64,000 nucleotides of DNA, taken from an uncultured delta proteobacterium. GTDB taxonomy: Bacteria > Desulfobacterota > Binatia > UBA9968. This document shows positions 9,202-22,985 of the stretch, one piece after another. The stretch's first letter is position 1. Each line of letters begins with the position of its first letter. The translations under genes and the position numbers were made by a program. The notes under the pieces were generated by a model. That model saw nothing but the letters and a program-made list of their open reading frames with translations. It had not been told where the DNA came from and did no database searches. The stretch lies in assembly GCA_963727625.1 (NCBI GenBank), contig CAVSHR010000002.1:512001-576000 (forward strand). The letters run 5' to 3'.

Positions 9202-9373
9202 AGGTACGTAATTTTCGATTCTACCCGCTAACGCGGCGGCGGCGTGTGAATTGAATTTGCCTAGGCTCGACTGAAGGGTATTAACGGCTGAAACAATTGG
9301 GATCCCTAAGCCTTGTGTGTCTGCAATTTTCCCGTGTCCAATGGATCTCCCAGCCTAGGAAGATGTTCTCCCA

Positions 9374-10561
9374 TTAACGCCACAGCTCGCGGGTCGCCAA
9401 GCGGGCGCCCTCCGCCAGCGCGGCGAACTTGAGCCAGGCCACGCTGGGATGGGTATCGTTAAATCTCAGTGCGGAGGCGGCAAATCCGCAATCGGCTCCC
9501 GCAATGACGTTCTCGCGCCCGACGATTTTGGCGAACCGCACGATCCGCTCGGCAACTAGCTCCGGATGCTCTACCAGGTTGGTCGTGTGGCTGATCACGC
9601 CCGGAATGAGGATCTTCCCGTCGGGGAGTTTGAATCGTTCGAAGACATGGTATTCGTGTTCGTGTCGTGGGTTCGCCGCTTCGAACGAATAGGCGCAGGC
9701 GTTGATTTTGAACATAATGTCGACGATGTCCTTGAGCGCCATCTCGTGGAGGCGCGGTCCGACATCGATGCTGTAACAGGTGTGGAAGCGGACCTTCTCG
9801 GGCGGGATGCCGCGGAGCGAATCATTGATCACTTCGACCCGCTCGGCTGCCCACTTCCTGCAGTCCGCGACGCTCGAGTCCGGGTTCATCATGTAATAGG
9901 AGACCAGACGCGGGTCGTCGATCTGGAGAATGAAGCCGGCGTCGACGATCGCCTGATACTCTTCGCGCAGGGCGTTGGATACGGCCTGCTCGTACTCCTC
10001 ATGGTTGCGGTAATATTCGTTGGAATAAGTCGCCGTGATATAAGATGCGGCGATCGCAGGCACGAAGATCTCCTCGTACTTCAAGCCGTTGGTTGCCGCC
10101 TTGAGATTGGCGATGTCTTCCTGGACCGCCGCGTGACCTCTATAACTGACCGGCCCGGTACAGGTGTCGACGCCTTGGCCGCGCCCGCTGCTCCGACCGC
10201 CGAACGGTTCGGCGATGCGCTCGGACCAGGCATAGTAGTCCGGGAAAGGGAGATATTCCCGGCTTGCCGCCCGCGGTCTGATTGAACCCGGAGCGGCCGG
10301 CTTGCGCTCGAAGCCGTTGAATCGCTCGATGACGTAGCCGAAGAAGCTCGCTTTGCCCTGCTCGCCGTCGGTGACGATATCGATGCCCGCTTCGATCTGT
10401 TTTTTTACAACCTCCGCTACCGCATCGCGCACCAGCCTTGCGAGCTCTTCACGGTCGTATGGCTGACCTCTTTCCCTCAGTCGAAGGAGCGGGATCAGGG
10501 AGTCGGAGCGGGCCAGACTGCCGACATGGGTCGTGAGGATTCTTTCATTGCTGCGCTTCAT
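9374..10561 (-). CDS. Cobalamin-independent methionine synthase II family protein
   Basis: TTHVGSL, LQIDDP, HTC, FEAANPRHEHE, ADCGF Zn ligands. Confidence 0.85.
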   Translation of the reverse strand: MKRSNERILTTHVGSLARSDSLIPLLRLRERGQPYDREELARLVRDAVAEVVKKQIEAGIDIVTDGEQGKASFFGYVIERFNGFERKPAAPGSIRPRAASREYLPFPDYYAWSERIAEPFGGRSSGRGQGVDTCTGPVSYRGHAAVQEDIANLKAATNGLKYEEIFVPAIAASYITATYSNEYYRNHEEYEQAVSNALREEYQAIVDAGFILQIDDPRLVSYYMMNPDSSVADCRKWAAERVEVINDSLRGIPPEKVRFHTCYSIDVGPRLHEMALKDIVDIMFKINACAYSFEAANPRHEHEYHVFERFKLPDGKILIPGVISHTTNLVEHPELVAERIVRFAKIVGRENVIAGADCGFAASALRFNDTHPSVAWLKFAALAEGARLATRELWR

Positions 10562-10671
10562 TGCAATTTTCCCTTTGGAACCGCGGATCGATCGCTACTT
10601 GGAATCTTAGCCAGCCGCTGAATTTAAACCATTGGAACGTCTGGAACGATTGGAACCTTACAACGTTCCGC

Positions 10672-11877
10672 TTAACTCCAAAGTTTCTTGCTCGCCAGCG
10701 CCGCGCCTTCGCAGAGGATGCGAAGTTTGGCCCACGCAATCTGAGGATGCACTCTCCCGCCCAGGCCACAGTCGGTGCCCGCGATCACGTTCTCGCGGCC
10801 TACGGCGTCGGCGAACGCGAGGATGCGGTCCGCCACCAGCTCCGGGTGCTCGACGACGTCCGTCGCGTGGCTGACGACGCCGGGAATCAGAATCTTGCCG
10901 GCCGGCAGCTTTACATTCCGCCAGACTTTGTGCTCATGCTCGTGGCGGCCGTTGCCCGCTTCCACCGAGTACGCGCCCGCATTCACTCTAAGCATGACGT
11001 CGACGACGTCGCGAAGCGGAATGTCCGTCGTGTGCGGGCCGTGCCAGCTGCCCCAGCAAATGTGATAGCGCACCCGATCCTGCGGAATGCCCGTGAGCGC
11101 GTGATTCAGCACCTCGACGCGCAGCAGCGCGTAGTGTTTGTATTCGTCCAGCGTCGGCCGCGGATCGAGCATGTCCCAGGCGCCGGGCAGACCGGGGTCA
11201 TCGAGCTGCAGGATGAAACCCGCGTCCGCGATTGCCCGGTATTCTTCGCGCATGGCCGCGGCGATCGCCTCTAGAAATGCCTCGGCGGTCGGGTAGTAAG
11301 TGTTCTGGTCGCGGCAAAACATCTCCAGGCTGCCGGGGGCGATGGAACTCATGAACGCTTCATCGACGCCTGCGGCATCGGCGGCTGCCTTCAGATTCGC
11401 GAGCTGGGCGCGCAGGTTCTCTTTGGCGGTGTAGGTAATCGGACCGATGCAGGTCGGGCGGCTCGCGGCGGTGCTCGGCGCTCCCAGTCCCGTGTCGGCG
11501 TAAAACTCGGCGAACTCGCGCTGCTCCCAGCGCTCGCCGACGATGCGCATGGGCGCTCCCGGAGCGGCCCGTTCGGGCGCAAGAGACTCCGCCGAGGTCG
11601 GGCCGAAACCGGAGACGCGTTCGAAGATGTAATTGCCCCAGGCACCCCGGTCCGTCGCCGCCCGCATGGGCTTGCCGAACTCGCCGTCGTTGGGAATATC
11701 GACGCCGGAATTTTTCTGCGCGACCACGACCTCGCCCACTGCAGAGCGCAACCGCGCCTGCAGAGCCGCTTCGTCCTCGGCCCCGCTGCTTTTCTTCGAC
11801 CACATTTCGCGCAAGTCGGCCGGTCGCGGCAGGCTGCCGGCATGCGTGGTCAGGATACGGTCAGTGCTTCGTCTCAT
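10672..11877 (-). CDS. Cobalamin-independent methionine synthase II family protein (paralog)
   Basis: TTHAGSLPRP, LQLDDP, HICWGSWHGPH, VEAGN.RHEHE, TDCG. Confidence 0.85.
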   Translation of the reverse strand: MRRSTDRILTTHAGSLPRPADLREMWSKKSSGAEDEAALQARLRSAVGEVVVAQKNSGVDIPNDGEFGKPMRAATDRGAWGNYIFERVSGFGPTSAESLAPERAAPGAPMRIVGERWEQREFAEFYADTGLGAPSTAASRPTCIGPITYTAKENLRAQLANLKAAADAAGVDEAFMSSIAPGSLEMFCRDQNTYYPTAEAFLEAIAAAMREEYRAIADAGFILQLDDPGLPGAWDMLDPRPTLDEYKHYALLRVEVLNHALTGIPQDRVRYHICWGSWHGPHTTDIPLRDVVDVMLRVNAGAYSVEAGNGRHEHEHKVWRNVKLPAGKILIPGVVSHATDVVEHPELVADRILAFADAVGRENVIAGTDCGLGGRVHPQIAWAKLRILCEGAALASKKLWS

Positions 11878-12165
11878 AATGCCTCCGCCCAAACGTCATT
11901 ATCATGGCGTGCTCCTACGCTCACGTCCGGTATCTCGCAGTCGCCACATCGATTCATCACTCGAAGTAGCTCGATCTCTCCGTGCGCCATTTGTGGGAGA
12001 AACTATCCGCGCGAACGATGCCCTGTCAAATTGTTGAAGGGGAGAAGACACAAATTTGGCACTCGATAGCACTTGTTTAACCTAAGATGCGTGGCGTCGC
12101 TTTCTACGAGGCGCTGCGACTTGTCCCAATGTAGATTCCCAACTCCTTAAAACTTTCGCGTGACC

Positions 12166-12206
12166 TGCGATTGACGACTCGAGGCGTTAGCGATAACAGA
12201 GAAAAC
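12166..12206 (+). promoter_or_regulatory. 41-nt promoter-like element duplicated at 21457-21497
   Basis: 37/41 identical; contains TTGACG. Confidence 0.6.
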
Positions 12207-13314
12207 AAACATTCAAATTCACACCAGACGGGGCAAATCCCGGCCCCGCAACCAACCTTTTCAACACCTTATCAAGCCCCGGTTCGAAAACGGTTTGATC
12301 GAACTGCAATCCCAAAGTCCCGCAGTAGTCCGCCTGAATCATCGCCAGCGACGTTCCACAGTACTGAGCAACCGACAGCGGATTCTCCCCCCGCCTGATC
12401 GCTTCCGTGATAAACGTATGCCGCGTGGCGTAGAATTTCCTATGTCGAATTCCCAATTTCTTTAGCGGACCGCCCCAATTATGCTCACTCCACTTCCTTG
12501 CGTTCATAGGCTCCCCGTTCTTATTCACAAAAATATGCTTAAGCCCTAACTGAAGCGAAGGCAGAATTTTCAGAACGTTCAACACAGGTTCCCCAAAGTG
12601 AATCGTCCGCGCACTGCCAAACGTTTTAGGCCCCGACTCGCTGCCCATGTATCTCGATTTGCTGATTGATAGAGTCTGCCGCTCCAAGTCCACATCGGCC
12701 CAGGAAAGCGCCGAAGCCTCAGACGGACGCATACCCGTATGAAACAACGTAAAAACCCAAGGGAAATAAAAGAAATCATTCTCAGCCCAGTAAGCCACAA
12801 TTTTGTCCCGCTCTTCCGCTGTAAACGGGTCTGGCTTCGCCCGCTGGTTCCGAGGCCATTCAATGTCAATAAACGGGTCTCTCCCCTTCAACGCCTCGAA
12901 ATCGCCCCGTGCGCCCTTGTAAAGCGCTCTAAATGAACCGTCAACGACATTTCGAGCAGTTTTCACGCTCAGGCCCTGCTGTAGCAATTGCCCCCTAAAT
13001 TCAATCAATTCGCCCGTTCCAATGGCCAACAAGCGCCGGTCTTTGAATCTGGGAAGAATGTAAGCCCGGAAATGTTGGTTATAGTCCCGCACCCGAGATC
13101 GCCGGTAGAGCGGTTCAATCTTAGTCTTGATCCATGAATCATAATACTCCTGAACAGTAGGTGTTGGCGTCAACCCGTACTGTCCCTTGATGTATTGCTC
13201 AAGCCGATGTTGAGCCAGGCCTTTTTTCGTCGTCTTTAGCGACTTCGTCACGCTTCCGTCAATCAGATACCACCTAGAGCCTCGGTCTTTCCGCTGTTTG
13301 ATGTGTGGGGGCAA
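12187..13314 (-). CDS. Tyrosine recombinase/integrase
   Basis: HTGMRPSEA, PKT, FYATRHTF, ADY catalytic motifs; AGGAGG RBS before TTG; C-terminus LVAGPGF is the antisense tRNA end. Confidence 0.92.
   Translation of the reverse strand: MPPHIKQRKDRGSRWYLIDGSVTKSLKTTKKGLAQHRLEQYIKGQYGLTPTPTVQEYYDSWIKTKIEPLYRRSRVRDYNQHFRAYILPRFKDRRLLAIGTGELIEFRGQLLQQGLSVKTARNVVDGSFRALYKGARGDFEALKGRDPFIDIEWPRNQRAKPDPFTAEERDKIVAYWAENDFFYFPWVFTLFHTGMRPSEASALSWADVDLERQTLSISKSRYMGSESGPKTFGSARTIHFGEPVLNVLKILPSLQLGLKHIFVNKNGEPMNARKWSEHNWGGPLKKLGIRHRKFYATRHTFITEAIRRGENPLSVAQYCGTSLAMIQADYCGTLGLQFDQTVFEPGLDKVLKRLVAGPGFAPSGVNLNVCFLCYR
12234..12254 (+). other. att site: tRNA-fMet 3'-end fragment CAAATCCCGGCCCCGCAACCA
   Basis: T-loop remainder + T-stem + CCCCGCA-ACCA acceptor end typical of initiator tRNA; 5' part of the tRNA absent. 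Confidence 0.8.
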
Positions 13315-13507
13315 GGATGGCCTCCTGAAAAGGAATTTCTAGCCCATGCAAAACCCGGTAAAAAGCATCAAGCCTCGGCATCTGGCCTTGCAAAATTTTC
13401 CCCAGGGTTTTGTTATTAACCCCACATACTGCACATGCGTCAGCGACTTTCAATTGCTTGGCTTCCATCGCTTGCAGTATACGGGCCACGTTAATCGTTA
13501 TATTCAT
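13274..13507 (-). CDS. Small Cro/XRE-like HTH protein
   Basis: 77 aa, VADACAVCGVNNKTLGKILQG helix-turn-helix pattern; overlaps the int start. Confidence 0.7.
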   Translation of the reverse strand: MNITINVARILQAMEAKQLKVADACAVCGVNNKTLGKILQGQMPRLDAFYRVLHGLEIPFQEAILAPTHQTAERPRL

Positions 13508-13534
13508 TGACTCACCAAAGGTCAGTCAGCAGGA

Positions 13535-13789
13535 TCACGAACCTTTGACCACTTTTCTAAGCCCTGGTTCACGATATTTTTCCATTGCTTCCCGTACGCT
13601 AGCCGCAGCCCCTTTCACTAGCATCTTAAGCCCATGGGGTTTCAGCGAGACGGCCAAATAAAGCAGCGCTGCCGCCCGCATGAATTCACTGACCTTCATG
13701 TCCAGTTTCTCAGCAGCTTCCTCAAAGGCTTGTTTATCCTGCGCTGACACTCTAACCATGATAACTCGACTACGATCCCGTGTTTCCAT
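13535..13789 (-). CDS. Ribbon-helix-helix (CopG/DUF1778-like) protein
   Basis: VIMVRVSAQDKQAFEEAAEKLDMKVSEFMRAAA; GAGGAGG RBS. Confidence 0.75.
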   Translation of the reverse strand: METRDRSRVIMVRVSAQDKQAFEEAAEKLDMKVSEFMRAAALLYLAVSLKPHGLKMLVKGAAASVREAMEKYREPGLRKVVKGS

Positions 13790-13976
13790 AACGCCCTCCT
13801 CATGTGTAATGCGTGTATATCATTATAGCTCAATATGTGTCAAGCGCTATTTTGACCGTATATAACAAGTGAACCGGACGCACGGCCAAGCGACGCAGCA
13901 ACCTAATATTTGACACATCCCACCTAAAGAAAGTAAGTTTACGAAGGGCTTTGATAATTTGCTTGTTGGAGGCTCT

Positions 13977-16535
13977 TTGGAAATTCCGCTCGTCGTTACA
14001 ACTTCCGGGTTATACTCCCGCCTCGGAGGTGATTCAGACCTTTTGACTGCAGTTCTGTCCCTGCGCTCGGTCGCGGGCAGTCTCGCCGAGACCGTTTCAC
14101 GCACAGTCCCTGGCTTCACCGATCACAGCCTCAGACACATGGACGCCCTCTGGAGTGTCAGCGATCGTATACTTATTCAGCAAGAGTTGATGGCTTTGTC
14201 GTATGGCGAGGCATTTCTTTTGGCGTGCGGATTTTATCTTCATGATATTGGCATGGCATACGCCGCGACATCCGAAGGCCTGGCACGCGTCCGCTCGTCG
14301 CCCGTGTACGCGAGCGCCATGGCAACCGCCAGTGCCGCCACGGGCGCGAAAACAGATCGAGCCTTAGAAGCAAGAGCAATTGCAATCGCTGTTCGGCAAC
14401 TTCATGCAGACGCAGCGATCGAACTGGCTACAAGCCCAGTGCCAGGTACAAACATCCACTTGTTTGAAAGTAGTTCTGTCCGAGATTCATGGGCGGAAAC
14501 CGCTGGTCGTATCGCTACTAGTCACCATTGGAGTCTAGAAACCATTGAGCGCGAGCTAGGTTCCCAAGGGGTGATTCCTCTGCCAGGTGGTCGCAGGGGT
14601 GACCTCGGATATATCGCCTCGCTTCTCCGTATTGTGGATTATGCTCACATTAATAGAGACAGGGCACTAACGATTGACCGTGCATTCCGCCCACCTATCG
14701 AGCGGGAGAGTTTGATTCATTGGCTTGCGCAGGAACATGTCGACGGCCCAGCCCGGGACGGTGCTGACCTGGTTTACCGAGCATCAAGCGCGATTTCAGA
14801 TGTTGACGCCTGGTGGACATACTATGAAATGCTTAAAGGACTTGATGAAGAAATACGCGCAGTTAGACGTTATTTGGACCGACGCTTAGTGAGCCAAGGC
14901 CGCTTTTCGCTGCAGGGTGTTCGAGGCGCCACATCTCCCGAAGAGGCTGCCGTCTTTGTTCCTACCTCTGGGTTTCTTCCGATAGAAATTAACTTACGTA
15001 CCGGCTCAATCGAACGGTTGGTACAACTCCTCGCAGGCGAATCACTTTATGGCCCCGATCCGATGGCGGCCGTACGCGAATTGATTCAAAACGCGCGTGA
15101 CGCCGTCATGCTAAAAACTGCTCTTGCGGCTACGGAATTTGATAGAGCTACCCTCTCCATCCCCATCCGCATAGCACTCAAAACAAATAGTTCCGCCCCG
15201 ATGTTGGAAGTCATGGATTCAGGTATAGGAATGACCCAAAAAGTTATGACCGACTACCTTATTTCGATTGCTTCCGATTATTGGACGTCGCAGATAGACA
15301 TCGATTTTCCGGGAGCTCGTGATCGGGGCTTCCACCCAGCGGGTAAATTCGGAATCGGATTCCTCTCCGTGTTCATGTTAGGTGAAGAGGTCACTGTAGA
15401 GTCCAATCGTGACGGAGGAGAACGTTATCAGCTTCATCTCCGAGGCGTAGGCCGGCGAGGTGAAATCCTAAGTCGAGTTGGACCATCCGGCAGCGGCACG
15501 GCTGTCCGTATATCTCTGAAACCGCAAGTCGTTGAGGCCCTTCGACCCCTTAGCGATCTAGTCAAAGTGTACGCTCCGATGCTGCCGCACAACCTAGAAG
15601 TCGAAGTAGACGGTCAACGCACAAGCATTCCAGCAGGCTGGTTACAAGAACTAAACGCTGATGAGTTCCTTAAGTGGACACTTAACGCCGTCTCGAAGCT
15701 GCAACGTAACCGAGCTGGCAGAACTTGGGATGACCGGAGGCTACCCCGCTCGATGTTTTTTCGCTACGGAATGACAGAGGAGCCCACAACGTGGCCCACA
15801 GGCTGGCCCGAATACCAAAATGCACATGTCCGATTGCTCGCCTCTTTTCACAATTACAGCCTTTTGTGTCTAAGAGGCCTGGCGATTCAACCCATTGCGA
15901 CGCCAGGTTTCGTTGGCGTTATTGACCTCGAATCAGCAACACCTGATGTGAGTAGAAAACAAATACTGAACAAGGATGTAACGGATATTATTCGTCACGC
16001 AAATCAAACAGTCAGGACGAAAATCGTCGAGAACCTAAACGCCCTGGCCAAGGGTTTACTAATCCAAAAACTCGACTTTGTAGGGATGTGTGTTTCTATG
16101 TATGGCCGAGAGACGATCTTAGAATCATCATTGCCCTGGATTAGCTTACTGAAATTGCCAGGTGAAGTACATTTGATAACTAGCACGATGCTCTTGGAGG
16201 AATTGTCCAAGGCCCCTTCACTATTTATTTCTTACGGCACAGGGCCCTGGACGGCAATGAAGCATTGGGGCGAGCTGAACTCGCAATCTTTGAGCGGTGC
16301 GCCAGCAGTAGTGCTCGATGATCTTCGCGGCGACAACTTGCGCTATCATGGCGGCTCAGAAGAAAAAGTAGGCACTTTGAGCGAGCTTTGGGATGACTGT
16401 GTTGATACGCCGCTATTTGGAACCGTCTTGCGACTCGCTGCCGAAGCGTGGCAGGTCAGCTTAGAGAACCTCACAGGACAAGAAGGGTGGCATCACTCTG
16501 GATCCGTACTTTGGGGTCAGCTCTTAAGACCGTGA
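13977..16535 (+). CDS. HD-domain + HSP90-like (GHKL) ATPase protein, candidate defence protein
   Basis: FTDHSLRH...LHDIGM...SHH...D HD motifs; LYG..AVRELIQNARDA, DSGIGMT, GKFGIGFLSVFM, GT GHKL motifs; GGAGG RBS before TTG 13977. Confidence 0.85.
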   Translation: MEIPLVVTTSGLYSRLGGDSDLLTAVLSLRSVAGSLAETVSRTVPGFTDHSLRHMDALWSVSDRILIQQELMALSYGEAFLLACGFYLHDIGMAYAATSEGLARVRSSPVYASAMATASAATGAKTDRALEARAIAIAVRQLHADAAIELATSPVPGTNIHLFESSSVRDSWAETAGRIATSHHWSLETIERELGSQGVIPLPGGRRGDLGYIASLLRIVDYAHINRDRALTIDRAFRPPIERESLIHWLAQEHVDGPARDGADLVYRASSAISDVDAWWTYYEMLKGLDEEIRAVRRYLDRRLVSQGRFSLQGVRGATSPEEAAVFVPTSGFLPIEINLRTGSIERLVQLLAGESLYGPDPMAAVRELIQNARDAVMLKTALAATEFDRATLSIPIRIALKTNSSAPMLEVMDSGIGMTQKVMTDYLISIASDYWTSQIDIDFPGARDRGFHPAGKFGIGFLSVFMLGEEVTVESNRDGGERYQLHLRGVGRRGEILSRVGPSGSGTAVRISLKPQVVEALRPLSDLVKVYAPMLPHNLEVEVDGQRTSIPAGWLQELNADEFLKWTLNAVSKLQRNRAGRTWDDRRLPRSMFFRYGMTEEPTTWPTGWPEYQNAHVRLLASFHNYSLLCLRGLAIQPIATPGFVGVIDLESATPDVSRKQILNKDVTDIIRHANQTVRTKIVENLNALAKGLLIQKLDFVGMCVSMYGRETILESSLPWISLLKLPGEVHLITSTMLLEELSKAPSLFISYGTGPWTAMKHWGELNSQSLSGAPAVVLDDLRGDNLRYHGGSEEKVGTLSELWDDCVDTPLFGTVLRLAAEAWQVSLENLTGQEGWHHSGSVLWGQLLRP

Positions 16536-16539
16536 TGTG

Positions 16540-16737
16540 CTAAACTAAGCTTTTAATGTACCAACGCGCTTGCGCAGGGGCAGACGCATCTTCTGCCCCT
16601 GCGCAGCTACTGCTAAATTCATAAAACACTCCGACAAATGGCCTGCGAACGAGAAACGCAACCGATCTAGCGCGATGACGTTCCTTATTGAACTTTATCC
16701 TTGCGGCCCGAGCGACACCCGTTTTTAGCCTACCCAT
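16540..16737 (-). CDS. Small basic hypothetical protein (start uncertain)
   Basis: AGGTGG RBS before ATG GGT AGG; downstream of rep; spans the hairpin, so doubtful. Confidence 0.3.
   Translation of the reverse strand: MGRLKTGVARAARIKFNKERHRARSVAFLVRRPFVGVFYEFSSSCAGAEDASAPAQARWYIKSLV
16571..16605. other. Perfect 14-bp stem hairpin (candidate replication origin or terminator)
   Basis: TGCGCAGGGGCAGA-cgcatct-TCTGCCCCTGCGCA. Confidence 0.6.
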
Positions 16738-16871
16738 GTCCCCACCACCTTTTTTATAGAATTCATAAACAATTTTTCTTCCACATTTGGCTTTAAACGA
16801 ACGATCTCGCATTAACCCTCATCTACCCCCCCTCTCACCTCTTATCGAGGCGCACCCCGACGTTGCGAATT

Positions 16872-17564
16872 TCAGAAGAGCTCGACTATCTGACGCTCGC
16901 GTACCTCAAGCAGCCTTCCTCCAATCACCGTTGAGCCCTCAGTCAACACCTCTTCCCACGAAACCAGCAGATCCTGAAAAGTAACGTCCGGCATCTCACG
17001 ATCAAACTTGTAAGCGTAATGCACGTCATGGCGAACCAACCTCAACATTCGAACCATAAACTTCCAGCCTTTGCCTATCGCAACCCTCGCACGCTTCCAG
17101 CTCCAGGACATCCTCACCAGTGCCCCCCGCTGATCGGCCAGGTATTGAAGAGCGAAATATCTCCCAACGCGACGAATTGAATTATTCCCCAGATTCATAC
17201 GCTGAATATAAACAATGTACGCTCCGTGAATGGTGTCCCACTGTTCGGAAAGCCAACCTTGATCGATGATGAACGGCCGATCGCCAGCCCAGGCCCAAAC
17301 CATGTGGAGAACTCCGTTGCCCTCCGAGGTTTCCACCACGAACGTTTCGACTCCTTTGTAACCGAGGTCACGTTCAACTCGCCGGCGAAGTTCTTGGAGA
17401 TGGCGACGCAGGAGATGAGCCGGACCATTATCAGCAGTGGTTAGATCGATCCTCGAAATCTGACAATTACGAGATTTTGCTTCGTAGCACCAACTTATAA
17501 GCCGGTTAAATACTCGCTTCTGTTGTTTTGTCCACGGCTTAAAATCACCCTTAGAATTCACCAC
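16872..17564 (-). CDS. Rolling-circle replication initiator (HUH endonuclease-like)
   Basis: Motif I IDLTT, motif II variant GVLHMVW, conserved W..IHG, motif III RYFALQYL (two Tyr); AAGGAGG RBS. Confidence 0.75.
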   Translation of the reverse strand: MVNSKGDFKPWTKQQKRVFNRLISWCYEAKSRNCQISRIDLTTADNGPAHLLRRHLQELRRRVERDLGYKGVETFVVETSEGNGVLHMVWAWAGDRPFIIDQGWLSEQWDTIHGAYIVYIQRMNLGNNSIRRVGRYFALQYLADQRGALVRMSWSWKRARVAIGKGWKFMVRMLRLVRHDVHYAYKFDREMPDVTFQDLLVSWEEVLTEGSTVIGGRLLEVRERQIVELF

Positions 17565-17723
17565 AAAACCTCCTTGGCACGACAGCCAACGGTTTGATTT
17601 TGGTTAGATCAAGGGTAGCCATAGGCAGCCTTTAGGCGCTTTTCCGCTTTTGTAACTTGTCGATTTGTCGGGAACTTAGCAGTTGAAGACTGTTAACAGC
17701 AGACGTTTCGGCGGATTCAAATC

Positions 17724-17903
17724 ATAGCACCATCCAATCCATTACGTGTAGGCCTCATCGGAGCCGCCGGCAGATGGGGACGGCGGGCGCATGTGCCGGC
17801 GCTCAAGGGCGTGTCCGAAGCCGAGCTCTATGCGGTGAGCACGGCGCACGCGGATACCGCCAAAGCGGCGGCCGGGAAGCTCGGCGTGGACCTGGCCTAT
17901 TAG
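17724..17903 (+). pseudogene. 5' fragment of Gfo/Idh/MocA oxidoreductase
   Basis: Translates IAPSNPLRVGLIGAAGRWGRRAHVPALKG...LAY*, a diverged copy of the N-terminus of 20181-21284; start codon is ATA. Confidence 0.85.
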
Positions 17904-18035
17904 AAGAGAGAAGGCTTTTTTTCAATGCACATGGCCCATAGGTGCTCATCGCGGCGCGAAAAAAACCTTGCCGCACCTTTTCGCAATAGATTAACTAGAG
18001 CTTGTCAGGTTTAGGTTAAGGGGTTTACGGAACGC

Positions 18036-20096
18036 ATGCTAAGGTTGTTATGGTCAAGAAGCGATTTTTGGACATGGCTTTTCCTTGATTTTTTATCGCC
18101 CGTTTATTTTTTTACTGCTCTCTTTCTTTATTATCGATATCTCAAAAAGACATCGCGAGGCAGGGTGGATGCTATTAGGGTCGCGTTCTGGTCGTTGCTG
18201 GCTATCGTCGGGTTGCTCCACTTGGCTTTTGGCGGACCCAGGCTCGTGTTATCCGGCCATACGGCTTTTATAAACAGTGTGGCCTTTTCTCCCGACGGTC
18301 AGTTTCTAGTATCAGCGGCAGACGATGAAACTGTCACGATCTGGGACCCCGTCACCGGCGAAAACCTTGAGACTCTCACCTATGTCGATCCCGTTCCTGT
18401 GAATTCGTTAGATTTTTCTCCTGATGGAAAGATCGTCGCGTTGGGGACTTGGAACAAAATAACGCTCTTGAACGTCACTGATGGAAAAGCACTTGCGACA
18501 CTGGGGAAACATCGAGAGCGCGGAGGCACGGATATCGATGCGGTATTATTTTTGTCTAATGCCAAGAAGTTGGTTGCCGCCGACATGAATTCGCTCAGAG
18601 TATGGGACGTTGAATCAAAAACCATCCAAGCTGCGTTGCTTGATGAGAGCAAAGATTTTTTCCAAGCCGAAGCCATAGCTGCCTCTCGTGACGGAAAGAT
18701 CCTCGCGTCGGGAAATCACCGCGGGAAGGTCACCCTTTGGGAAGTACTAGGGAAAAAAAGGATTGTGACGTTTGCGGCACATGGCGACGAAAAGGTGTCG
18801 GCGCTGGCTTTTTCTCCCGATGGCCGCTTGCTCGCCAGTGGCGGACATGACGCACGAACCGTCCTATGGCATTTGAAAGGCAATCAGCCCGAAGAAATTT
18901 TTATCCTGAAAGCGGATACTGGCGATATCAACACCTTGGCCTTCTCGCCTGACGGGAAACTGCTCGCTACCGGCGCATATCACATACGAATATGGAATGT
19001 TGCTACCGGTAAATTGATGTTAACGACTAAAGGACGCCGGGTACGAATCAGAAAAATTGCTTTTTCTCCGGACGGTGCGAGATTGGCGGCCGGAGGTGAA
19101 GATGGAATCATCGAGGTTTGGAGTGTAAAAAGCCGAAAAAATCAATTAACACTCAAAGTCGACGACGGGTTTCCAGTCCTGGCACTCGGATTCTCCCCCG
19201 ACGGCAAGATCCTCGCGAGCGGCACCCGAGGCGGGTTGGTGACTTTCTGGGATCCTGTCAGCGGCAAAAAAAAATCTGTTTTTCAGACGGATGGCAAGAA
19301 ATCCTCTCCAAACATCGGAACAGTAGGCCACAAAGTCGAAGCATTAGCGTTTTCGCCCGACGGAAAGACGCTCGCCGCCGGAACCTGGAAGATCGTGAAC
19401 CTGTGGGACACTGAAACCTGGCAGCTTCGCAGAAACTTCTGGCTGGGCGGAGATTTTTCTATAAAATCGCTAATTTTTTTCCCGACGGGACAGTTGTTTG
19501 CCGCCAATGAGAAAGCTAGCGCGGTATGGACCATTGCCACCGGTGAAAGGGTTTCCGGTGTGGATAAACGCCTGGGCCCGTTGGCGACTCTCTCCCATGA
19601 CGGCAAAATACTCGCGACCGGTAGCGGCTATGGGCTCAATCTTTGGAACACGGGGCGGTGGAGTTTAATGTTCCACCTACAAATGCTTGGACGGAAAAAA
19701 GTAACCTCCATGGCATTTTCCCCCAATGGGAAAATTTTGGCGGTCGGCAATGCTGCCAACGAATTGGCGCTTTGGATTAGTAGCCGGTGGCAGAGAGTGC
19801 CCAACGTTCTGAACAAAGTCGGATGTGGGGGAGCAGTCGTGTCGCTTGCGTTTTCTCCTAACAGTAGGTGGTTGGCTGCCCGAACCGTCCACTCGCGTGC
19901 CCGTTGGGTGTTGTTCTTTTTACCGTTACCGGAGAGCCCGGGGTGTATAACTCTCTTTCGCATAAAGGATAATTATTTTAGCTTTATGCCTTGGCGCGCA
20001 GAAATTGGGGGGAGTGGGTTAAGCTTTTCTTCGGACAGCAAGACCCTGGCAGCTGCTTCCGGCATGAATACGATTAAATTGTGGCAGGTGGAGTGA
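18036..20096 (+). CDS. Membrane-anchored WD40 repeat protein
   Basis: Two N-terminal hydrophobic helices, then >12 (L/V)AFSPDG..LA....D..I.IW repeats. Confidence 0.9.
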   Translation: MLRLLWSRSDFWTWLFLDFLSPVYFFTALFLYYRYLKKTSRGRVDAIRVAFWSLLAIVGLLHLAFGGPRLVLSGHTAFINSVAFSPDGQFLVSAADDETVTIWDPVTGENLETLTYVDPVPVNSLDFSPDGKIVALGTWNKITLLNVTDGKALATLGKHRERGGTDIDAVLFLSNAKKLVAADMNSLRVWDVESKTIQAALLDESKDFFQAEAIAASRDGKILASGNHRGKVTLWEVLGKKRIVTFAAHGDEKVSALAFSPDGRLLASGGHDARTVLWHLKGNQPEEIFILKADTGDINTLAFSPDGKLLATGAYHIRIWNVATGKLMLTTKGRRVRIRKIAFSPDGARLAAGGEDGIIEVWSVKSRKNQLTLKVDDGFPVLALGFSPDGKILASGTRGGLVTFWDPVSGKKKSVFQTDGKKSSPNIGTVGHKVEALAFSPDGKTLAAGTWKIVNLWDTETWQLRRNFWLGGDFSIKSLIFFPTGQLFAANEKASAVWTIATGERVSGVDKRLGPLATLSHDGKILATGSGYGLNLWNTGRWSLMFHLQMLGRKKVTSMAFSPNGKILAVGNAANELALWISSRWQRVPNVLNKVGCGGAVVSLAFSPNSRWLAARTVHSRARWVLFFLPLPESPGCITLFRIKDNYFSFMPWRAEIGGSGLSFSSDSKTLAAASGMNTIKLWQVE

Positions 20097-20180
20097 GGTC
20101 GGGCGCCGGAGCCTATGGGAGTAATGCAGCCGCCTATCCAAGCGTTTCACTGAAGAAACGTATCCAAAAAAGGAAAACCA

Positions 20181-21284
20181 ATGGCACAATTCGATCCACT
20201 ACGCGTAGGCCTTATCGGAGCGGGAGGCAGATGGGGGCCGCGGGCGCACGTGCCGGCGCTAAAGGGCACGCTTGAAACCGAGCTCTATGCGGTGTGCACG
20301 GCGCATGCGGATACTGCGAAGGCGGCGGCGGATAAGTTCGGCGTGGCGTACGCGTACGGCAGCGACGAGGCTATGTATTCTGACGAGCGGGTCGAAGCGG
20401 TGTCGGTCGCGGTGCGCGTGCCGGCGCATTATGAGCTTTGCAAAAACGCCATCGAGGCAGGCAGGCACGTCTTCTGCGAATGGCCGCTCGGCGCCAATAC
20501 CAAAGAAGCCGAAGAACTCGCCGTATTGGCGCGCAAGAAAAATGTCCGCACCATGGTCGGCCTGCAGCGTCGCGCGTCGCCCGCTTATCTCTACATGCGC
20601 GAGCTGATTCAGGATGGCTACGTCGGCCAGGTACTAGCGGTGAACTTGCTGCTCATTGGCAGCGGCGTGTTGACCCGTCCGTCTGATCGCACCTGGCAGC
20701 GCGACGTGACGTTGGGCGCAAACACATTGACGATTACTTTCGGGCACGTGCTCGACGCCATGTGCCTGGTAGCCGGCGAGCTCGCCGAAGTTTCCGCTAT
20801 CGTCTCGACGCAGGTGCCGCAGTGGTTCGAGACCGACACGAAGAAATATGTGGATGTCACCTCGCCCGACAACGTCATGGTTCATGGTCGGCTCGAAAAC
20901 GGCGCCGTCGTCAATGCCTACTGTGGCGTGCAGCCGTACCACGGCAGCGGCCATCGCCTGGAGATTTACGGCAAGGACGGCACGCTCTCGATGATCGGCG
21001 GCGGCGAGGGCGGCGGGGAGCATCAACGCAAGATCATGGGCGGACAAAAGGGCGACAAGGCGCTCCAGGAGTTGACCGTCCCGGAAAAATTCAAGTGGGT
21101 GCCGGAAGCGGTGCGAAGCAGCGGTCCGGCATACGAAGTGGGCCAGCTGTGGGTCAAGTTCGCCGAAGCGATCCGCAGCGGCTCGACCAACGACGCCGAC
21201 TTTGATCATGCGGTGCGCCGCCAGCGAACCTTTGATGCCATCGTGCGCGCTTCAGAGACGGGACAGAGGCAGAAAATAATATGA
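20181..21284 (+). CDS. Gfo/Idh/MocA family oxidoreductase
   Basis: RVGLIGAGG Rossmann motif, HVFCEWPL. Confidence 0.9.
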   Translation: MAQFDPLRVGLIGAGGRWGPRAHVPALKGTLETELYAVCTAHADTAKAAADKFGVAYAYGSDEAMYSDERVEAVSVAVRVPAHYELCKNAIEAGRHVFCEWPLGANTKEAEELAVLARKKNVRTMVGLQRRASPAYLYMRELIQDGYVGQVLAVNLLLIGSGVLTRPSDRTWQRDVTLGANTLTITFGHVLDAMCLVAGELAEVSAIVSTQVPQWFETDTKKYVDVTSPDNVMVHGRLENGAVVNAYCGVQPYHGSGHRLEIYGKDGTLSMIGGGEGGGEHQRKIMGGQKGDKALQELTVPEKFKWVPEAVRSSGPAYEVGQLWVKFAEAIRSGSTNDADFDHAVRRQRTFDAIVRASETGQRQKII

Positions 21285-21296
21285 TCGATTAACTCA

Positions 21297-21438
21297 GTTC
21301 CAAAGGTTCCAGCGGTTCCAATCGTTCCAGTAGGTTCGCCGGGTTCAAATCGTTCAAGCCGTGCAACCGACCGAAACAGAGTTCATTAAACCATTGGAAC
21401 GATTGGTACGAAGCGCAGCGATGGAACGACTGGAACCG
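21297..21438. repeat. Inverted array of ~9-nt GTTCCA/GTTCAA units (REP-like)
   Basis: gttccaaag gttccagcg gttccaatc gttccag... mirrored by ttggaacga ttggtacga...atggaacga ctggaacc; related arrays at ~10610-10660, 37770-37812, 51115-51187. Confidence 0.75.
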
Positions 21439-21521
21439 GTCCCTGTTCCAGCCGATTGTGATTGACGACTCGACGGCTTAGCGATAACAGAGAAAACGAA
21501 TAAGCGGGAGGAGCGCTGATC

Positions 21522-22985
21522 ATGGCAAATCGAGCGGCACAAATTCATGACGGGTTGAAGCATCCGGTGATCGACGGCGACGGCCACTGGTTGGAGCCGA
21601 TTCCGATTTTCCTCGAGTACCTGAACGAAGTCGACGGCGCGAAATCTGTGGACCAGATGCGAGCGTTATGGCGCGGACGGGATGCATGGTACCGCGCCAC
21701 CCCAGATCAGCGTCAACAAAGCCGAATCCGTCGCGCCATCTGGTGGGGTGTGACGAGCGACACCTACGACAAGGCGACGGCGCTGCTGCCGGCCTTGCTG
21801 AACGAGCGACTGCCCGAGCTGGGCATCGACTTCGCGCTGATCTATCCGAGCTTCGGGCTGAGCATCAACGGCATGGGCGAGGGCGACCTGCACCGGGCCG
21901 CGGTGCGCGCCTACAACATGATGACGGCCGACATGTTCGCGCCCTTTGCCGCGCGCTTCGCGCCGGTTGCCATCATTCCCACCCACACGCCTGAAGAAGC
22001 TCTTGAGGAGCTGGAGTATGCCGTCGTCCAGCGCGAATACCGGGCGATCATGCTACGCGGAAATCAGGAGCGGACAATTCCAAGCGCGGCGGAAGCGGTC
22101 AATGACCGGCAGAAGGCCGCGTGGTATGTCGATACCATCGCGCTCGACAGCCCTTATGATTTCGAGCCGCTCTGGAAGCGCTGCGTCGAGCTTGGCGTCG
22201 CCGTGACCCAACACTCAGGCAGCGGCCGTTGGCAGGATCGCGCCTCGATCAGCAACTTCACCTACAATCACGTCGGCCACTTCGCCGAATCGAACCATGC
22301 GTTCGCGCGGGGAGTTTTCCTCGGCGGTCTGGTACGACGCTACCCGAGCCTCAATTTCGGCTTCATGGAAGGCGGCGTGAGTTGGGCATGCCAGATGTGT
22401 CTCGACATGATCGAGCACTGGGAGAAGCGCCGCCGCGCCGGCTTGCAGTATCCGAGCGAAACCGACATTGCCGAGATCAACCGGCTGATTGATCGCTACG
22501 GCGATCAAAAGCTGAAGGCCAACGCCGCCGCGCTCATGAACAGTCTGGACGCCTTCCGTCCGGAGTGCAGTCTTGAAGAGCTCAGCCGGCCCGAATATGT
22601 CACGGACGATTTCGAAGCGTCCGGCGTCAACTCAAAAGACGACGTTCGGGCAGTCTTCTCCGGCAACTTCTACTTCGGCTGCGAGGCGGACGATCGCGCA
22701 ACCATGTGGGCCTTCGATCCACGCATGGGCGTGCGGCTTCGGCCGATCTTCAGCTCGGACTTCACCCACTTCGACGTGCCCGATTTCAAGGAGGTGATTC
22801 CTGAAGCGTATGAGATGGTGGAGAGGAACTTCGTGACCGAACAGGATTTCAAAGAGTTCACCTTCACCAACGCCGCGCGCCTGCACACGCGCAACAACCC
22901 GGTATTCTTCAAAGGCACTGTCGTCGAGCGAGCAGTGGTCGATGAGTTGGGACTGAAGACGCGGTTGGCAGCGGCGAAAGCTTAA
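21522..22985 (+). CDS. Amidohydrolase family protein
   Basis: VIDGDGHWLE, FMEGGVSW, FSSDFTHFD motifs. Confidence 0.85.
   Translation: MANRAAQIHDGLKHPVIDGDGHWLEPIPIFLEYLNEVDGAKSVDQMRALWRGRDAWYRATPDQRQQSRIRRAIWWGVTSDTYDKATALLPALLNERLPELGIDFALIYPSFGLSINGMGEGDLHRAAVRAYNMMTADMFAPFAARFAPVAIIPTHTPEEALEELEYAVVQREYRAIMLRGNQERTIPSAAEAVNDRQKAAWYVDTIALDSPYDFEPLWKRCVELGVAVTQHSGSGRWQDRASISNFTYNHVGHFAESNHAFARGVFLGGLVRRYPSLNFGFMEGGVSWACQMCLDMIEHWEKRRRAGLQYPSETDIAEINRLIDRYGDQKLKANAAALMNSLDAFRPECSLEELSRPEYVTDDFEASGVNSKDDVRAVFSGNFYFGCEADDRATMWAFDPRMGVRLRPIFSSDFTHFDVPDFKEVIPEAYEMVERNFVTEQDFKEFTFTNAARLHTRNNPVFFKGTVVERAVVDELGLKTRLAAAKA

Follow-up and report, generated by a model that had tools for sequence, protein, structure and literature searches.

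The stretch of DNA analysed here (the window, 64,000 nucleotides in length) contained a discrete mobile element at 12234-17723, a unit of 5,484 bp (5,490 bp with both copies of CAAATC included). Its four smaller genes lie on the minus strand and a single large cargo gene lies on the plus strand, with all five ORFs intact in this copy. The features of the element and its immediate flank were as follows.

12187-13314, minus strand: tyrosine integrase (Int), 375 aa (PF00589, E 1.6e-11; phrog_1, E 1e-40)
12234-12239, plus strand: left crossover core CAAATC (attL), where homology to the second copy starts
12234-12254, plus strand: element-borne copy of the tRNA-Met 3' end, half of the attP core (a 21-mer unique in the window)
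13274-13507, minus strand: small helix-turn-helix (HTH) protein, 77 aa, overlapping the int start (HTH_3, E 0.0076, below the cut-off)
13535-13789, minus strand: ribbon-helix-helix (RHH) protein, 84 aa (NikA-like PF21983, 33.8 bits, cut-off 27)
13790-13878, no strand: conserved non-coding block upstream of the RHH gene, forming the left border of the cargo slot (from alignment with the second copy)
13879-16770, no strand: cargo slot of 2892 nt, with no relation to that of the second copy
13977-16535, plus strand: cargo gene, N-terminal HD-CE phosphohydrolase domain and Hsp90-like body (PF24391, E 8e-32; PF13589)
16571-16605, no strand: candidate terminator just past the cargo stop codon, a perfect inverted repeat (14-nt arms, 7-nt loop)
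16872-17564, minus strand: pRQ7-type HUH rolling-circle Rep, 230 aa (homology to the pRKU1/pRQ7 Rep; modelled fold)
17565-17717, no strand: conserved non-coding region that separates rep from the att end (95% identity to the second copy)
17718-17723, plus strand: right crossover core CAAATC (attR)
17724-17889, plus strand: remnant of the target, external to the element: 166 nt that duplicate the 5' end of a Gfo/Idh/MocA oxidoreductase gene

The genes and domains were as described in the original prediction, which named an integrase, an HTH protein, an RHH protein and an HD+HSP90 cargo gene in the opposite orientation. Its claim that capsid, packaging and conjugation genes are lacking also held, with no match to such families in Pfam, PHROGs or NCBIfam. 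The RHH protein had been called CopG-like; it is an RHH protein, but its top-scoring match was the NikA-like family of relaxosome accessory proteins and not CopG, and its match to RHH_1 was weaker (E 0.002). The small HTH protein, which was also kept in two relatives (L032 and L033), is a candidate excisionase or regulator.

Borders, second copy and target site

The hexamer CAAATC occurred 61 times in the window against 49 ± 7 expected, and by itself it is no evidence of borders. The borders placed at these repeats in the original prediction are right nonetheless, because a second copy of the element on another contig of the same genome (G000:C4) aligned from exactly 12234 and to exactly 17723. 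Identity to this copy was 78% from 12234 to 13878 and 93% from 16771 to 17723, while the middle part was different. In the pairwise alignment identity ended directly after GGCGGATTCAAATC (...GGATTCAAATC). At the protein level the two copies were 86% identical for Int, 69% for the HTH protein and 95% for Rep. The G+C content was ~0.47-0.56 inside the unit versus ~0.60-0.67 in the genes to its left. A WD40 segment adjoining on the right, up to ~20100, was likewise low in G+C.

The second copy sits in a tRNA-Met(CAT) gene (L011 6472-6548), between 24-nt direct repeats TTCAAATCCCGGCCCCGCAACCAA at L011 6526 and 12047, and is adjoined by a truncated tandem remnant. The 21-mer at 12234-12254 of the window is identical to the 3' end of this tRNA gene, and its minus strand codes for the ...VAGPGF tail of Int, such that the end of the int gene overlaps the attP core copied from the tRNA. 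The Int ORF runs 47 nt past the element into the host flank (12187-12233), and the C-terminal tail is changed accordingly, giving 375 aa in the window and 367 aa in the second copy. Four more relatives (L030, L031, L032 and L035) had a tRNA-Met-type junction adjoining the same conserved non-coding region, a junction that was absent from the window. No tRNA gene was found in the window, and the copy there is not integrated in one; it lies at a secondary, non-tRNA site that has only CAAATC in common with the att core, and its two ends share just these 6 bp.

The remnant to the right of the element was 83% identical to 20181-20346 and 90% identical to an orthologue in a related genome (G045). An empty site in relatives, as anticipated by the original prediction, was seen when the flanks were joined: an ungapped local alignment crossed the junction in two of five orthologous loci, with 18/25 positions identical left of the junction in G012 (matched by 0/1000 shuffles) and 12/17 in G009 (matched by 2/1000 shuffles), and did not do so in G045, G043 or G017. 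Rep was found in none of the 30 other genomes of the genus, and the absence of the element from all 30 indicates that it was acquired recently.

The Rep protein and its family

No model in Pfam, PHROGs, NCBIfam or PADLOC matched the window Rep, and evidence that it is an HUH protein had to come from elsewhere. It has a homologue in the Rep of the Thermotoga miniplasmids pRKU1/pRQ7, each of 846 bp (tblastn E 3e-6, 28.7% identity, to NC_006528.1 and NC_023152.1). These plasmids, in which the gene is annotated 'Rep protein', were the only ones matched among 72,556, and hhalign of the Rep family against the pRKU1 Rep gave 99.7% and E 2.2e-26 over 182 columns. The motifs FLTLT, HMH and YMMKY of pRKU1 aligned to DLTT, HMV and YFALQY of the window. 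The pRKU1 Rep itself belongs to PF23343 REP_ORF2-G2P (E 2e-15, 57 bits versus a cut-off of 27.8), a model matched neither by the window Rep nor by nine other family members at E <= 1, and none of 76 Rep homologues contained a Pfam domain.

Invariant residues of Rep include T79, E81, G82, G84, V85, L86, H87, Y136 and Y141. Y136 and Y141, the motif III tyrosines, lie in a helix (127-143 in the AF2 model) and align to YMMKY, and for motif I (uuTuT) the invariant L41 and T42, present in >=90% of rows, both lie in the strand 35-42 and align to FLTLT. Rep thus has the catalytic tyrosine and motif I features of HUH endonucleases, as judged from sequence and model, and is predicted to nick DNA. The metal-binding motif of this group contains two histidines; in Rep only H87 is present, in a degenerate H-M-V, the residue next but one after it was V, I, L or W in 42 aligned members, and the second histidine is missing in nearly the whole clade. 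Single-histidine variants are known among other Reps.

The AF2 model of Rep (pLDDT 92.2) has the fold typical of HUH nucleases, a central beta-sheet with helices. With VIA, the best structure was 2x3g_A (SIRV1 ORF119, a rudiviral Rep; Z 11.3, rmsd 3.2, 114/116 residues aligned), the only match at Z >= 8, and other HUH nucleases followed at Z 5.9-7.1, including Helitron (7.1), AAV5 Rep (6.8) and TnpA-REP (6.4). Foldseek against the PDB returned no more than weak rows, none of them at E <= 1e-3, and in BFVD the model had 126 matches at this threshold, of which the two named ones were microvirus replication initiators. The HUH assignment of the original prediction was therefore borne out by the pRKU1 alignment and the fold, but not by any family model or by a complete histidine motif.

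The region 17565-17717 could be aligned with L030, L031, L032 and L035, the Reps of which share 65-71% identity, and it is a candidate for the origin, the attP arm and the promoter of rep. Upstream of rep, neither a hairpin nor an unusual fold was found to mark an origin (z -0.35 and -0.18).

The Rep family comprised 1606 cluster representatives at E <= 1e-3. Identical terminal repeats, the usual sign of a circular contig though short of proof, were present on 17 of 80 metagenome contigs with Rep relatives and gave units of 1072-2055 bp. Rep was the only sizeable gene in these 1.1-2.1-kb circles, and an RHH homologue lay beside it in one circular contig of 1866 bp (L045). Nine Int...Rep elements of 3998-7017 bp were bounded by direct repeats. 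Eight of the nine, the second copy and seven other relatives, were integrated beside tRNA-Met, Leu, Phe or Pro genes, with the window copy as the sole exception. A tyrosine integrase lay <=8 kb from Rep in 11 of 20 distinct loci with >=5 kb on one side of Rep, in keeping with the predicted co-occurrence of the two genes, and no recombinase was detected in eight of the 20 using a home-made HMM, which can miss some. Rep ORFs were split in L032-L034. The element belongs to a widespread family that is apparently undescribed.

Cargo slot and cargo gene

The alignment with the second copy was conserved as far as ...GTGAACCGG and was then broken, and the match between the copies ended at 13878. The two copies of one genome show directly that the slot lying between the regulators and rep is swappable. 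In the second copy the cargo ORFs are split. In the window the cargo ORF starts at 13959 or 13977 and encodes 852 aa from the start used in the database. HATPase_c_3 was the second Pfam match of the protein, its HD and GHKL motif residues were invariant in 36 homologues, and its AF2 model (pLDDT 87) matched full-length Hsp90/TRAP1 in Foldseek (E 1e-13 over ~480-500 columns). No PADLOC-DB 2.0.0 model was matched at E <= 0.01, and a weak match to a sacsin-type ATPase (NF047352, 25 bits) was below the cut-off of 50. The inverted repeat at 16571-16605 was not detected by the terminator scan. A 90-aa ORF (16540-16812), mostly within the non-conserved slot and lying over this repeat, is probably not a gene.

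Each element carried different cargo, including an Eco29kI restriction-modification system, HicB, SIR2-STAND and unknowns, in addition to the HD-CE/Hsp90-like fusion of the window. The slot had originally been described as one for defence genes. The exchange of cargo was evident from the two copies, but recognised restriction-modification, toxin-antitoxin or SIR2-STAND cargo was present in only three of the nine bounded elements, five of the nine carried cargo without a recognised defence domain, and the window cargo had no PADLOC match. A role of the cargo in defence may be proposed. Tiamat and MORC-like proteins are described as GHL-ATPase defence proteins in bioRxiv 10.64898/2026.09.30.754977, and the cargo resembles them, as they are described there, in fusing a GHKL/Hsp90-like ATPase to a hydrolytic effector in one polypeptide. 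Its effector is an N-terminal HD-CE domain instead of the C-terminal PD-(D/E)xK nuclease of that description, and its body resembles full-length Hsp90.

A probable integrative rolling-circle element and its alternatives

We consider it probable that the locus is an integrative element of three modules. The first would be a rolling-circle replicon consisting of the pRQ7-type HUH Rep, the ~150-nt conserved non-coding region and the small RHH regulator; a replicon of the same kind occurs alone as the 1.1-2.1-kb circles. The second would consist of the tyrosine integrase and its small HTH partner, with an attP core copied from the 3' end of tRNA-Met, and the third would be the slot for exchangeable cargo between the RHH gene and rep, occupied here by the HD-CE and Hsp90-like protein. 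The usual integration site of this lineage would be tRNA-Met, and the window copy may have entered a secondary site just before the start codon of the Gfo/Idh/MocA gene fragment, the strands being exchanged inside the 6-bp CAAATC that this site shares with the att core. Int, with the HTH protein, may excise the circle, and Rep may nick the circle at an origin located in the conserved non-coding region, copying it via single-stranded DNA, with the RHH protein restricting copy number or expression. The cargo may act as a conflict or defence effector in which the ATPase controls the HD hydrolase, and the element may be transferred between cells. The original wording, an integrative rolling-circle plasmid or phage satellite, is supported as to an integrative rolling-circle element, which may be a plasmid or a satellite.

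A phage satellite is suggested by one relative, in which Rep directly follows Zot (PF05707, E 2.5e-25), DUF5455 and coat-like genes in an 8.5-kb IMG/VR contig (L029; a methylase and then an EVE protein lie beyond Rep). RS1 is a satellite of CTXphi, and the element could similarly be a satellite of a filamentous, inovirus-like phage, reduced to functions for integration and regulation plus a G2P-type Rep; a helper inovirus would supply the coat and Zot proteins that package and export the single-stranded DNA made by rolling-circle replication. The placement of the pRKU1 Rep in PF23343, the ORF2/G2P family of filamentous phages, points the same way, and inoviruses are reported to swap replication and integration modules, to integrate at tRNA genes by exchangeable recombinases and to carry toxin-antitoxin cargo (PMC6813254). 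However, L029 was the only viral contig obtained from pattern scans, none of 50,697 phage records matched, and the element and its own 98%-complete genome contain no Zot, nor coat or assembly genes. With no packaging signal identified, and with the 17 Rep-only circles showing that the replicon stands alone, we regard such a satellite as quite unlikely. The match of the RHH protein to a relaxosome accessory family, above its cut-off, raises another possibility, that of an integrative mobilizable element whose HUH protein is a relaxase acting at an oriT in the conserved non-coding region, with the RHH protein as accessory and a conjugative system acting in trans. Rolling-circle Reps and relaxases share their nicking chemistry, such hitcher elements are reportedly common, the same RHH type was found in L015, and there were weak NCBIfam matches to MobA and MbpA. 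This is very unlikely given that no canonical relaxase family was matched in Pfam or NCBIfam, that the genome contains no VirB4 (PF03135) or coupling protein (PF02534), that PLSDB types the two Thermotoga plasmids as non-mobilizable, and that Rep, as the only sizeable gene of the small circles, must serve replication there.

It is barely plausible that the window copy is a fixed remnant, its genes persisting at a secondary site from which it is unable to excise. The mere 6 bp common to its ends and the altered tail of Int would fit such a fate, and decay is known in the family from the tandem remnant and the split Rep and cargo ORFs. Against this stand five intact ORFs, a Rep 95% identical to that of the second copy, base-exact borders and the absence of the element from the other 30 genomes.

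The three-module element resembles several known systems in part. Like the 1.1-2.1-kb circles, the Thermotoga miniplasmids pRQ7, pRKU1 and pMC24 (846 bp) are minimal replicons with a homologous Rep as sole gene; they lack integrase, regulators and cargo, and their Rep has a full HMH. Replication by rolling circle is reported for pRQ7 (PMC3398313). The element shares with actinomycete AICEs and archaeal NitAQ6f-E2 a tyrosine integrase, an att site located within a gene or next to one, a rolling-circle initiator and, in many cases, restriction-modification cargo. AICEs such as pSAM2 are integrative, have a rolling-circle Rep and an FtsK-like transfer gene, and are larger. NitAQ6f-E2 is described as an archaeal cryptic integrated element with a thaumarchaeal SNJ1/IS91-like Rep (PMC6563490). 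The element differs from these in its Rep family (RepSA matched the pRKU1 Rep at only E 0.14), its total size of 4-7 kb and its fixed order Int-(HTH)-RHH-slot-Rep. Integrative mobilizable elements and phage satellites of the PICI and PICMI types carry defence genes and are likewise small integrase-bearing islands with a variable accessory region; however, they are not known to have a rolling-circle Rep of this family, and among the Pfam, PHROGs and NCBIfam matches of the element there was no primase-helicase, terminase, capsid-redirecting or relaxase gene.

So far the Rep found in the smallest natural plasmids known has been treated as a Thermotoga curiosity. It heads a family that numbers at least 1,606 sequence clusters across both prokaryotic domains, most members being without a Pfam model, and this family is tied to a very small and orderly integrative chassis. 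The chassis is a natural experiment in the fewest parts needed for integration, replication and payload carriage, with a possible use in building compact vectors for phyla that are difficult to manipulate, and its slot, with known defence systems and many unknowns, is a place to seek new defence genes. The pair of copies in one genome, at tRNA-Met and at a 6-bp secondary site, offers a test case for site choice by a tRNA-targeting integrase. A broader reading, which we hold to be rather unlikely, is that pRQ7-type Reps form a large unrecognised superfamily of minimal replicons across Bacteria and Archaea, whose members switch repeatedly among bare circles of 1-2 kb with Rep alone, 'defence shuttles' of 4-7 kb that integrate at tRNA genes, and filamentous viruses, and in which excision and rolling-circle amplification raise the cargo dose on demand. 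If so, the element would act in immunity as a copy-number switch, responding for instance to attack by phages, and not as a passive island. The groups named for this superfamily were Nitrospirota, Verrucomicrobiota, Bathyarchaeia and Thermoplasmatota.

Borders and gene content of the element

The element combines a tyrosine integrase and a predicted rolling-circle replication protein with a single large gene on the opposite strand. Window positions 12187-17564 hold four minus-strand genes and one plus-strand gene. The G+C content is about 0.47-0.56, whereas genes on the left side have about 0.60-0.67; the WD40 segment adjoining on the right, up to about 20100, is likewise low.

Genes and ends of the window element
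12234 and 17718: CAAATC, element ends
Minus strand: tyrosine integrase (Int); PF00589, E 1.6e-11; phrog_1, E 1e-40
Minus strand: HTH protein, 77 aa, overlapping the start of int; HTH_3, weak, E 0.0076
Minus strand: ribbon-helix-helix (RHH) protein, 84 aa; best match NikA-like PF21983, 33.8 bits, above cut-off; RHH_1 weaker
Minus strand: Rep, 230 aa; no match in Pfam, PHROGs, NCBIfam or PADLOC
Plus strand: cargo gene, 852/858 aa; HD-CE PF24391, E 8e-32, and HATPase_c_3

The CAAATC repeats are not significant alone, since the hexamer occurs 61 times in the window and 49 +/- 7 occurrences are expected. In order to place the borders, we relied on a second copy of the element (copy 2, locus L011), which was found on another contig of the same genome (G000:C4) when relatives were searched with 9300-22500. 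Positions 12234-13878 matched G000:C4:1355527-1357174 at 78% identity and 16771-17723 matched G000:C4:1360107-1361053 at 93%, and the middle of copy 2 was unrelated to that of the window. The outer ends of these matches agree to the base with the originally predicted borders, 12234 and 17723; in the pairwise alignment identity runs to ...GGCGGATTCAAATC and divergence begins at the very next base. A chance pair of CAAATC repeats is ruled out, since the paralogue fixes both borders. The window's genome contains exactly two Rep genes, one in each copy, and the gene was absent from all 30 other genomes of the genus.

The replication protein

None of the 76 homologues of Rep contained a Pfam domain. 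A profile made from 42 of them (fragments and some full-length members were left out) matched 1606 cluster representatives at E <= 1e-3, 877 at <= 1e-10 and 294 at <= 1e-30, with invariant residues in three motifs, (D/T)LTT, E-G-N-G-V-L-H and Y-x4-Y-L. Among 72,556 plasmids, the only matches were the 846-bp Thermotoga pRKU1 and the RQ7 plasmid, whose single gene is annotated as "Rep protein" (28.7% identity, E 3e-6). The plasmids pRQ7, pMC24 and pRKU1 are described as nearly identical, 846 bp long and carrying one ORF, and rolling-circle replication has been described for pRQ7 (PMC3398313, citing Yu and Noll 1997). Profile comparison of the Rep family with the pRKU1 Rep gave 99.7% probability (E 2.2e-26, 182 columns) and aligned DLTT, HMV and YFALQY of the window protein with the three classical rolling-circle motifs of pRKU1 (FLTLT, HMH and YMMKY). 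The pRKU1 protein falls in PF23343 (REP_ORF2-G2P, E 2.4e-15); the window's Rep clade is too divergent for this model to match. No Rep match was found in the phage collection, and a search of PDB sequences with the family profile gave no credible hit, the best (E 0.034) being an unrelated exonuclease.

The fold was settled by a wide structural search. The AF2 model is confident (pLDDT 92.2, pTM 0.87) and places H87 in a central strand and both tyrosines on helix 127-143. Against 48,161 chains, VIA-align ranked the rudiviral Rep ORF119 (2x3g) first (Z 11.3, rmsd 3.2, 114 of 116 residues), the sole match with Z >= 8. The next matches (Z 5.9-7.1) included Helitron, AAV5 Rep, TnpA-REP, parvoviral NS1, and vientovirus and geminivirus Reps, amid unrelated ferredoxin-like folds. 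Of the 126 BFVD matches at E <= 1e-3, two are named, both microvirus replication initiators; Foldseek against the PDB gave weak matches, none at E <= 1e-3. Together, the homology to pRKU1 and the modelled fold uphold the original prediction of an HUH Rep, with one amendment: in this pRQ7-type protein, predicted to have the HUH fold, the second HUH histidine is replaced. Folding of 17565-17723 as DNA on both strands gave z of -0.35 and -0.18 with no origin hairpin found, and neither the promoter scan (4 vs 4.8 expected) nor the terminator scan (4 vs 6.2) exceeded its shuffles.

Insertion sites and the cargo slot

Copy 2 begins within a tRNA-Met(CAT) gene (L011 6472-6548), and a 24-nt direct repeat, TTCAAATCCCGGCCCCGCAACCAA, stands at its two ends (L011 6526 and 12047). 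The int gene of copy 2 terminates within this repeat, so the ...VAGPGF tail of its Int is encoded by the att core. The left end of the window copy (12234-12254) is the same tRNA-like 21-mer, which is unique in the window; at the right end the tRNA-like sequence stops after CAAATC, and no tRNA gene was found anywhere in the window. Four other loci (L030, L031, L032 and L035), with Reps 65-71% identical, have a full tRNA-Met-type junction beside the same conserved 150-nt non-coding region. These junctions and those of copy 2, set against the window ends, identify tRNA-Met as the usual target of this lineage and the window copy as a secondary-site insertion, with only a 6-bp stretch common to both sites. 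Beside copy 2, L011 12050-12329 contains a truncated int 3' end (57% identity with Int residues 284-360) and, after it, a 52-nt duplicate of the right end, the remains of an older, decayed tandem element.

To the right of the window copy, 17724-17889 duplicates the 5'-terminal 166 nt of a Gfo/Idh/MocA oxidoreductase gene. Identity is 83% with the intact gene at 20181 and 90% with the orthologue in the relative G045; this closer match to G045 than to the gene 2.4 kb downstream suggests that the fragment originated in another strain. The left flank holds a promoter-like motif and RBS region also found ahead of the G045 orthologue. The original prediction had called for an empty site in relatives, and we joined the two flanks by script and compared them with related genomes by ungapped local alignment and 1000 shuffles. 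The joined flanks aligned across the junction in G012 (18/25 identical left of the junction, 0/1000 shuffles as good) and in G009 (12/17, 2/1000 shuffles), and in G045, G043 and G017 the alignment began 9 nt right of the junction and did not cross it. Uninterrupted sequence colinear with the joined flanks is thus present in two of five orthologous loci. From the joined-flank alignments, the element sits directly 5' of the start codon of the oxidoreductase gene fragment.

Several other features were evident around this site. The promoter-like motif, GATTGACGA..TCG....GCGATAAC (window 12166-12209), recurs up- or downstream of the oxidoreductase gene in relatives. The low-G+C segment at 17890-20180 codes for a WD40 beta-propeller protein of 686 aa that has a membrane segment at its N-terminus, and lies between 166-nt direct repeats of the oxidoreductase 5' end (17724-17889 and 20181-20346, 83% identical). 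A search of 30 other genomes of the genus did not find this DNA segment, which looks like a separate, older insertion. On the left, 9374-11892 (minus strand) encodes two adjacent paralogous MetE-like (Meth_synt_2) genes, which in relatives are not syntenic with the oxidoreductase gene and lie on different contigs.

Homology between the window element and copy 2 breaks at 13878/13879 and resumes at 16770/16771. Two copies in one genome with unrelated middles bear out the predicted swappable slot between the regulators and rep. Nine elements were bounded by direct repeats, and the cargo is different in each. Rep and Int lie at opposite ends in all nine, Int adjoins the tRNA in all eight at tRNA sites, and most have an RHH gene before int, often with a small ORF.

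Direct-repeat-bounded elements: length, site and cargo
Window element: 5484 bp; non-tRNA site; HD-CE/Hsp90-like fusion (predicted)
L011 (copy 2): 5521 bp; tRNA-Met; frameshifted membrane-protein gene, DUF5677-like gene, split Trypsin_2 gene
L032/33: 3998 bp; tRNA-Met; unknowns
L014: 5056 bp; tRNA-Leu; HicB and small ORFs
L063: 5847 bp; tRNA-Leu; 952-aa SIR2 + nSTAND5 protein
L068/69: 6313 bp; tRNA-Leu; PDZ protein and unknowns
L081: 7017 bp; tRNA-Leu; Sel1-repeat protein (one ORF scanned)
L015: 6023 bp; tRNA-Phe; N6/N4 methylase and Eco29kI endonuclease (E 1.7e-60)
L062: 6265 bp; tRNA-Pro; unknowns

Recognised restriction-modification, toxin-antitoxin or STAND-type cargo is present in three of the nine. 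Two unbounded loci carry DUF6119, Vsr and a C5 methylase (L061) and an nSTAND3 protein (L016), and PADLOC run on 10 sister-element cargo proteins gave weak matches for the L016 STAND protein only. The window's own cargo had no PADLOC match.

The window cargo has 282 homologues at E <= 1e-5, nearly all of which share both domains and a length of about 850 aa; their distribution across Acidobacteriota, Pseudomonas and Armatimonadota is scattered. Among 400 other genomes sampled from the phylum, just three encode a full-length relative, at 25-34% identity. In 36 aligned homologues the HD residues H50, D56, H89, D90, H143, H183, D221 and H224 are invariant, as are the GHKL motifs (E368, N372, D375; D414, G416, G418; G456, G459, G461). 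Sequence profiles extend over the N-terminal ATPase domain only, and the AF2 model (pLDDT 87) aligns with full-length Hsp90, TRAP1 and Grp94 over about 480-500 columns (E 1e-13). Because of these invariant residues and the structural alignment, the protein is predicted to be a fusion of an HD hydrolase with an Hsp90-like body, both predicted active sites being conserved. A literature search on "HD-CE" found nothing relevant. The patchy distribution, the defence genes held by the slot elsewhere and the analogy to GHL-ATPase defence proteins, Tiamat among them (bioRxiv 10.64898/2026.09.30.754977), lead us to infer a putative role in defence.

The slot of copy 2 contains sequences that also occur at other loci. 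Its cargo at L011 8357-9174 is 98.5% identical to a chromosomal gene at G000:C4:369152-369970 (L125 2653-3471) encoding a 239-aa membrane protein near an integron-type/XerD-like integrase, and is frameshifted in copy 2, which suggests that the slot recently exchanged DNA with another locus. The slot opens with 187 nt (L011 8177-8364) of a repeat that also occurs, at about 75% identity, at several intergenic positions in numerous genomes of the genus. Rfam gave no match in the copy 2 slot, including this repeat, which might supply homology for cargo exchange.

Distribution of the Rep family and a proposed life cycle

Pattern scans identified 11 loci in species genomes, from Verrucomicrobiota, Nitrospira/Nitrospiria, six Bathyarchaeia and one Thermoplasmatota, as well as one IMG/VR contig and 387 metagenome stretches. 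Among the best 80 of the 387 stretches, 17 contigs had identical terminal repeats of 38-317 nt; these circular-signature units are 1072-2055 bp long with 34-58% G+C and encode Rep and 0-3 small ORFs, and one of them (L045, 1866 bp) also carries an RHH gene. The inovirus-like contig L029 has the order coat-like gene, 564-aa Gly/Ala-rich gene, DUF5455, Zot (E 2.5e-25), Rep, methylase, 289-aa gene and EVE gene; viral contigs scanned with its Rep yielded L029 itself only.

For 20 distinct loci the sequence extended 5 kb or more to one side of Rep, and 11 of them have a tyrosine integrase within 8 kb, in keeping with the predicted co-occurrence of Int and Rep. One more has a large serine recombinase, and in eight no recombinase was found near Rep, three of these being cut on the relevant side. 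At L077 4998-8711, beside tRNA-Asn, a family Rep is paired with the serine recombinase (Resolvase, Recombinase and Zn ribbon) in place of a tyrosine integrase, with cargo that includes a Trypsin_2 protein. In a quick tree (SH-aLRT; rows under 190 aa left out), integrase-linked Reps fall in at least eight places, interleaved with circles; the label was no more clustered than in shuffles (74/500 as low), with most rows of unknown state.

We propose that Int, probably with the help of the HTH protein, would excise a 5,484-bp circle, and that Rep would nick in the conserved non-coding DNA, leading to rolling-circle copying. The RHH protein may repress rep and itself, or assist at the nick site. 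The circle could then insert again into tRNA-Met or, on rare occasions, into a sequence resembling the core. We rejected an IS91- or Helitron-like transposase: the nearest characterised homologue is the Rep of a plasmid, and there are Rep-only circles. The element could also be a satellite or a mobilizable element, but we found no Zot, VirB4 or coupling protein in the window's genome, so either would need an outside helper, and we regard both as minority options.

Among known integrative elements, AICEs have rolling-circle Reps. Archaeal cryptic integrated elements also combine integration with a rolling-circle Rep (PMC6563490), and integrated inoviruses likewise carry such Reps (PMC6813254). 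A literature search on pRQ7, pMC24 and pRKU1 returned papers on Thermotoga genetics and genomes, and none was found describing integrative relatives. As far as this search shows, the 846-bp Thermotoga plasmids were the one previously known source of this Rep family, and the inovirus replication families in Supplementary Table 5 of PMC6813254 might include it. Also new are the size of the family, which spans both domains, the many Rep-only circles of 1.1-2.1 kb, and the compact, fixed integrative architecture with a cargo slot.

Two contigs have other arrangements. The 3675-bp metagenome contig L087 contains three head-to-tail units of Rep and a 120-aa ORF (period 1505 nt, 78% identical to each other), and may represent either a tandem array or related mini-circles joined by chimeric assembly. 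The 4204-bp Thermoplasmatota contig L022, which is without a terminal repeat, has a distant Rep relative beside small ORFs, one with an arginine-rich N-terminus as in small ssDNA virus capsid proteins.
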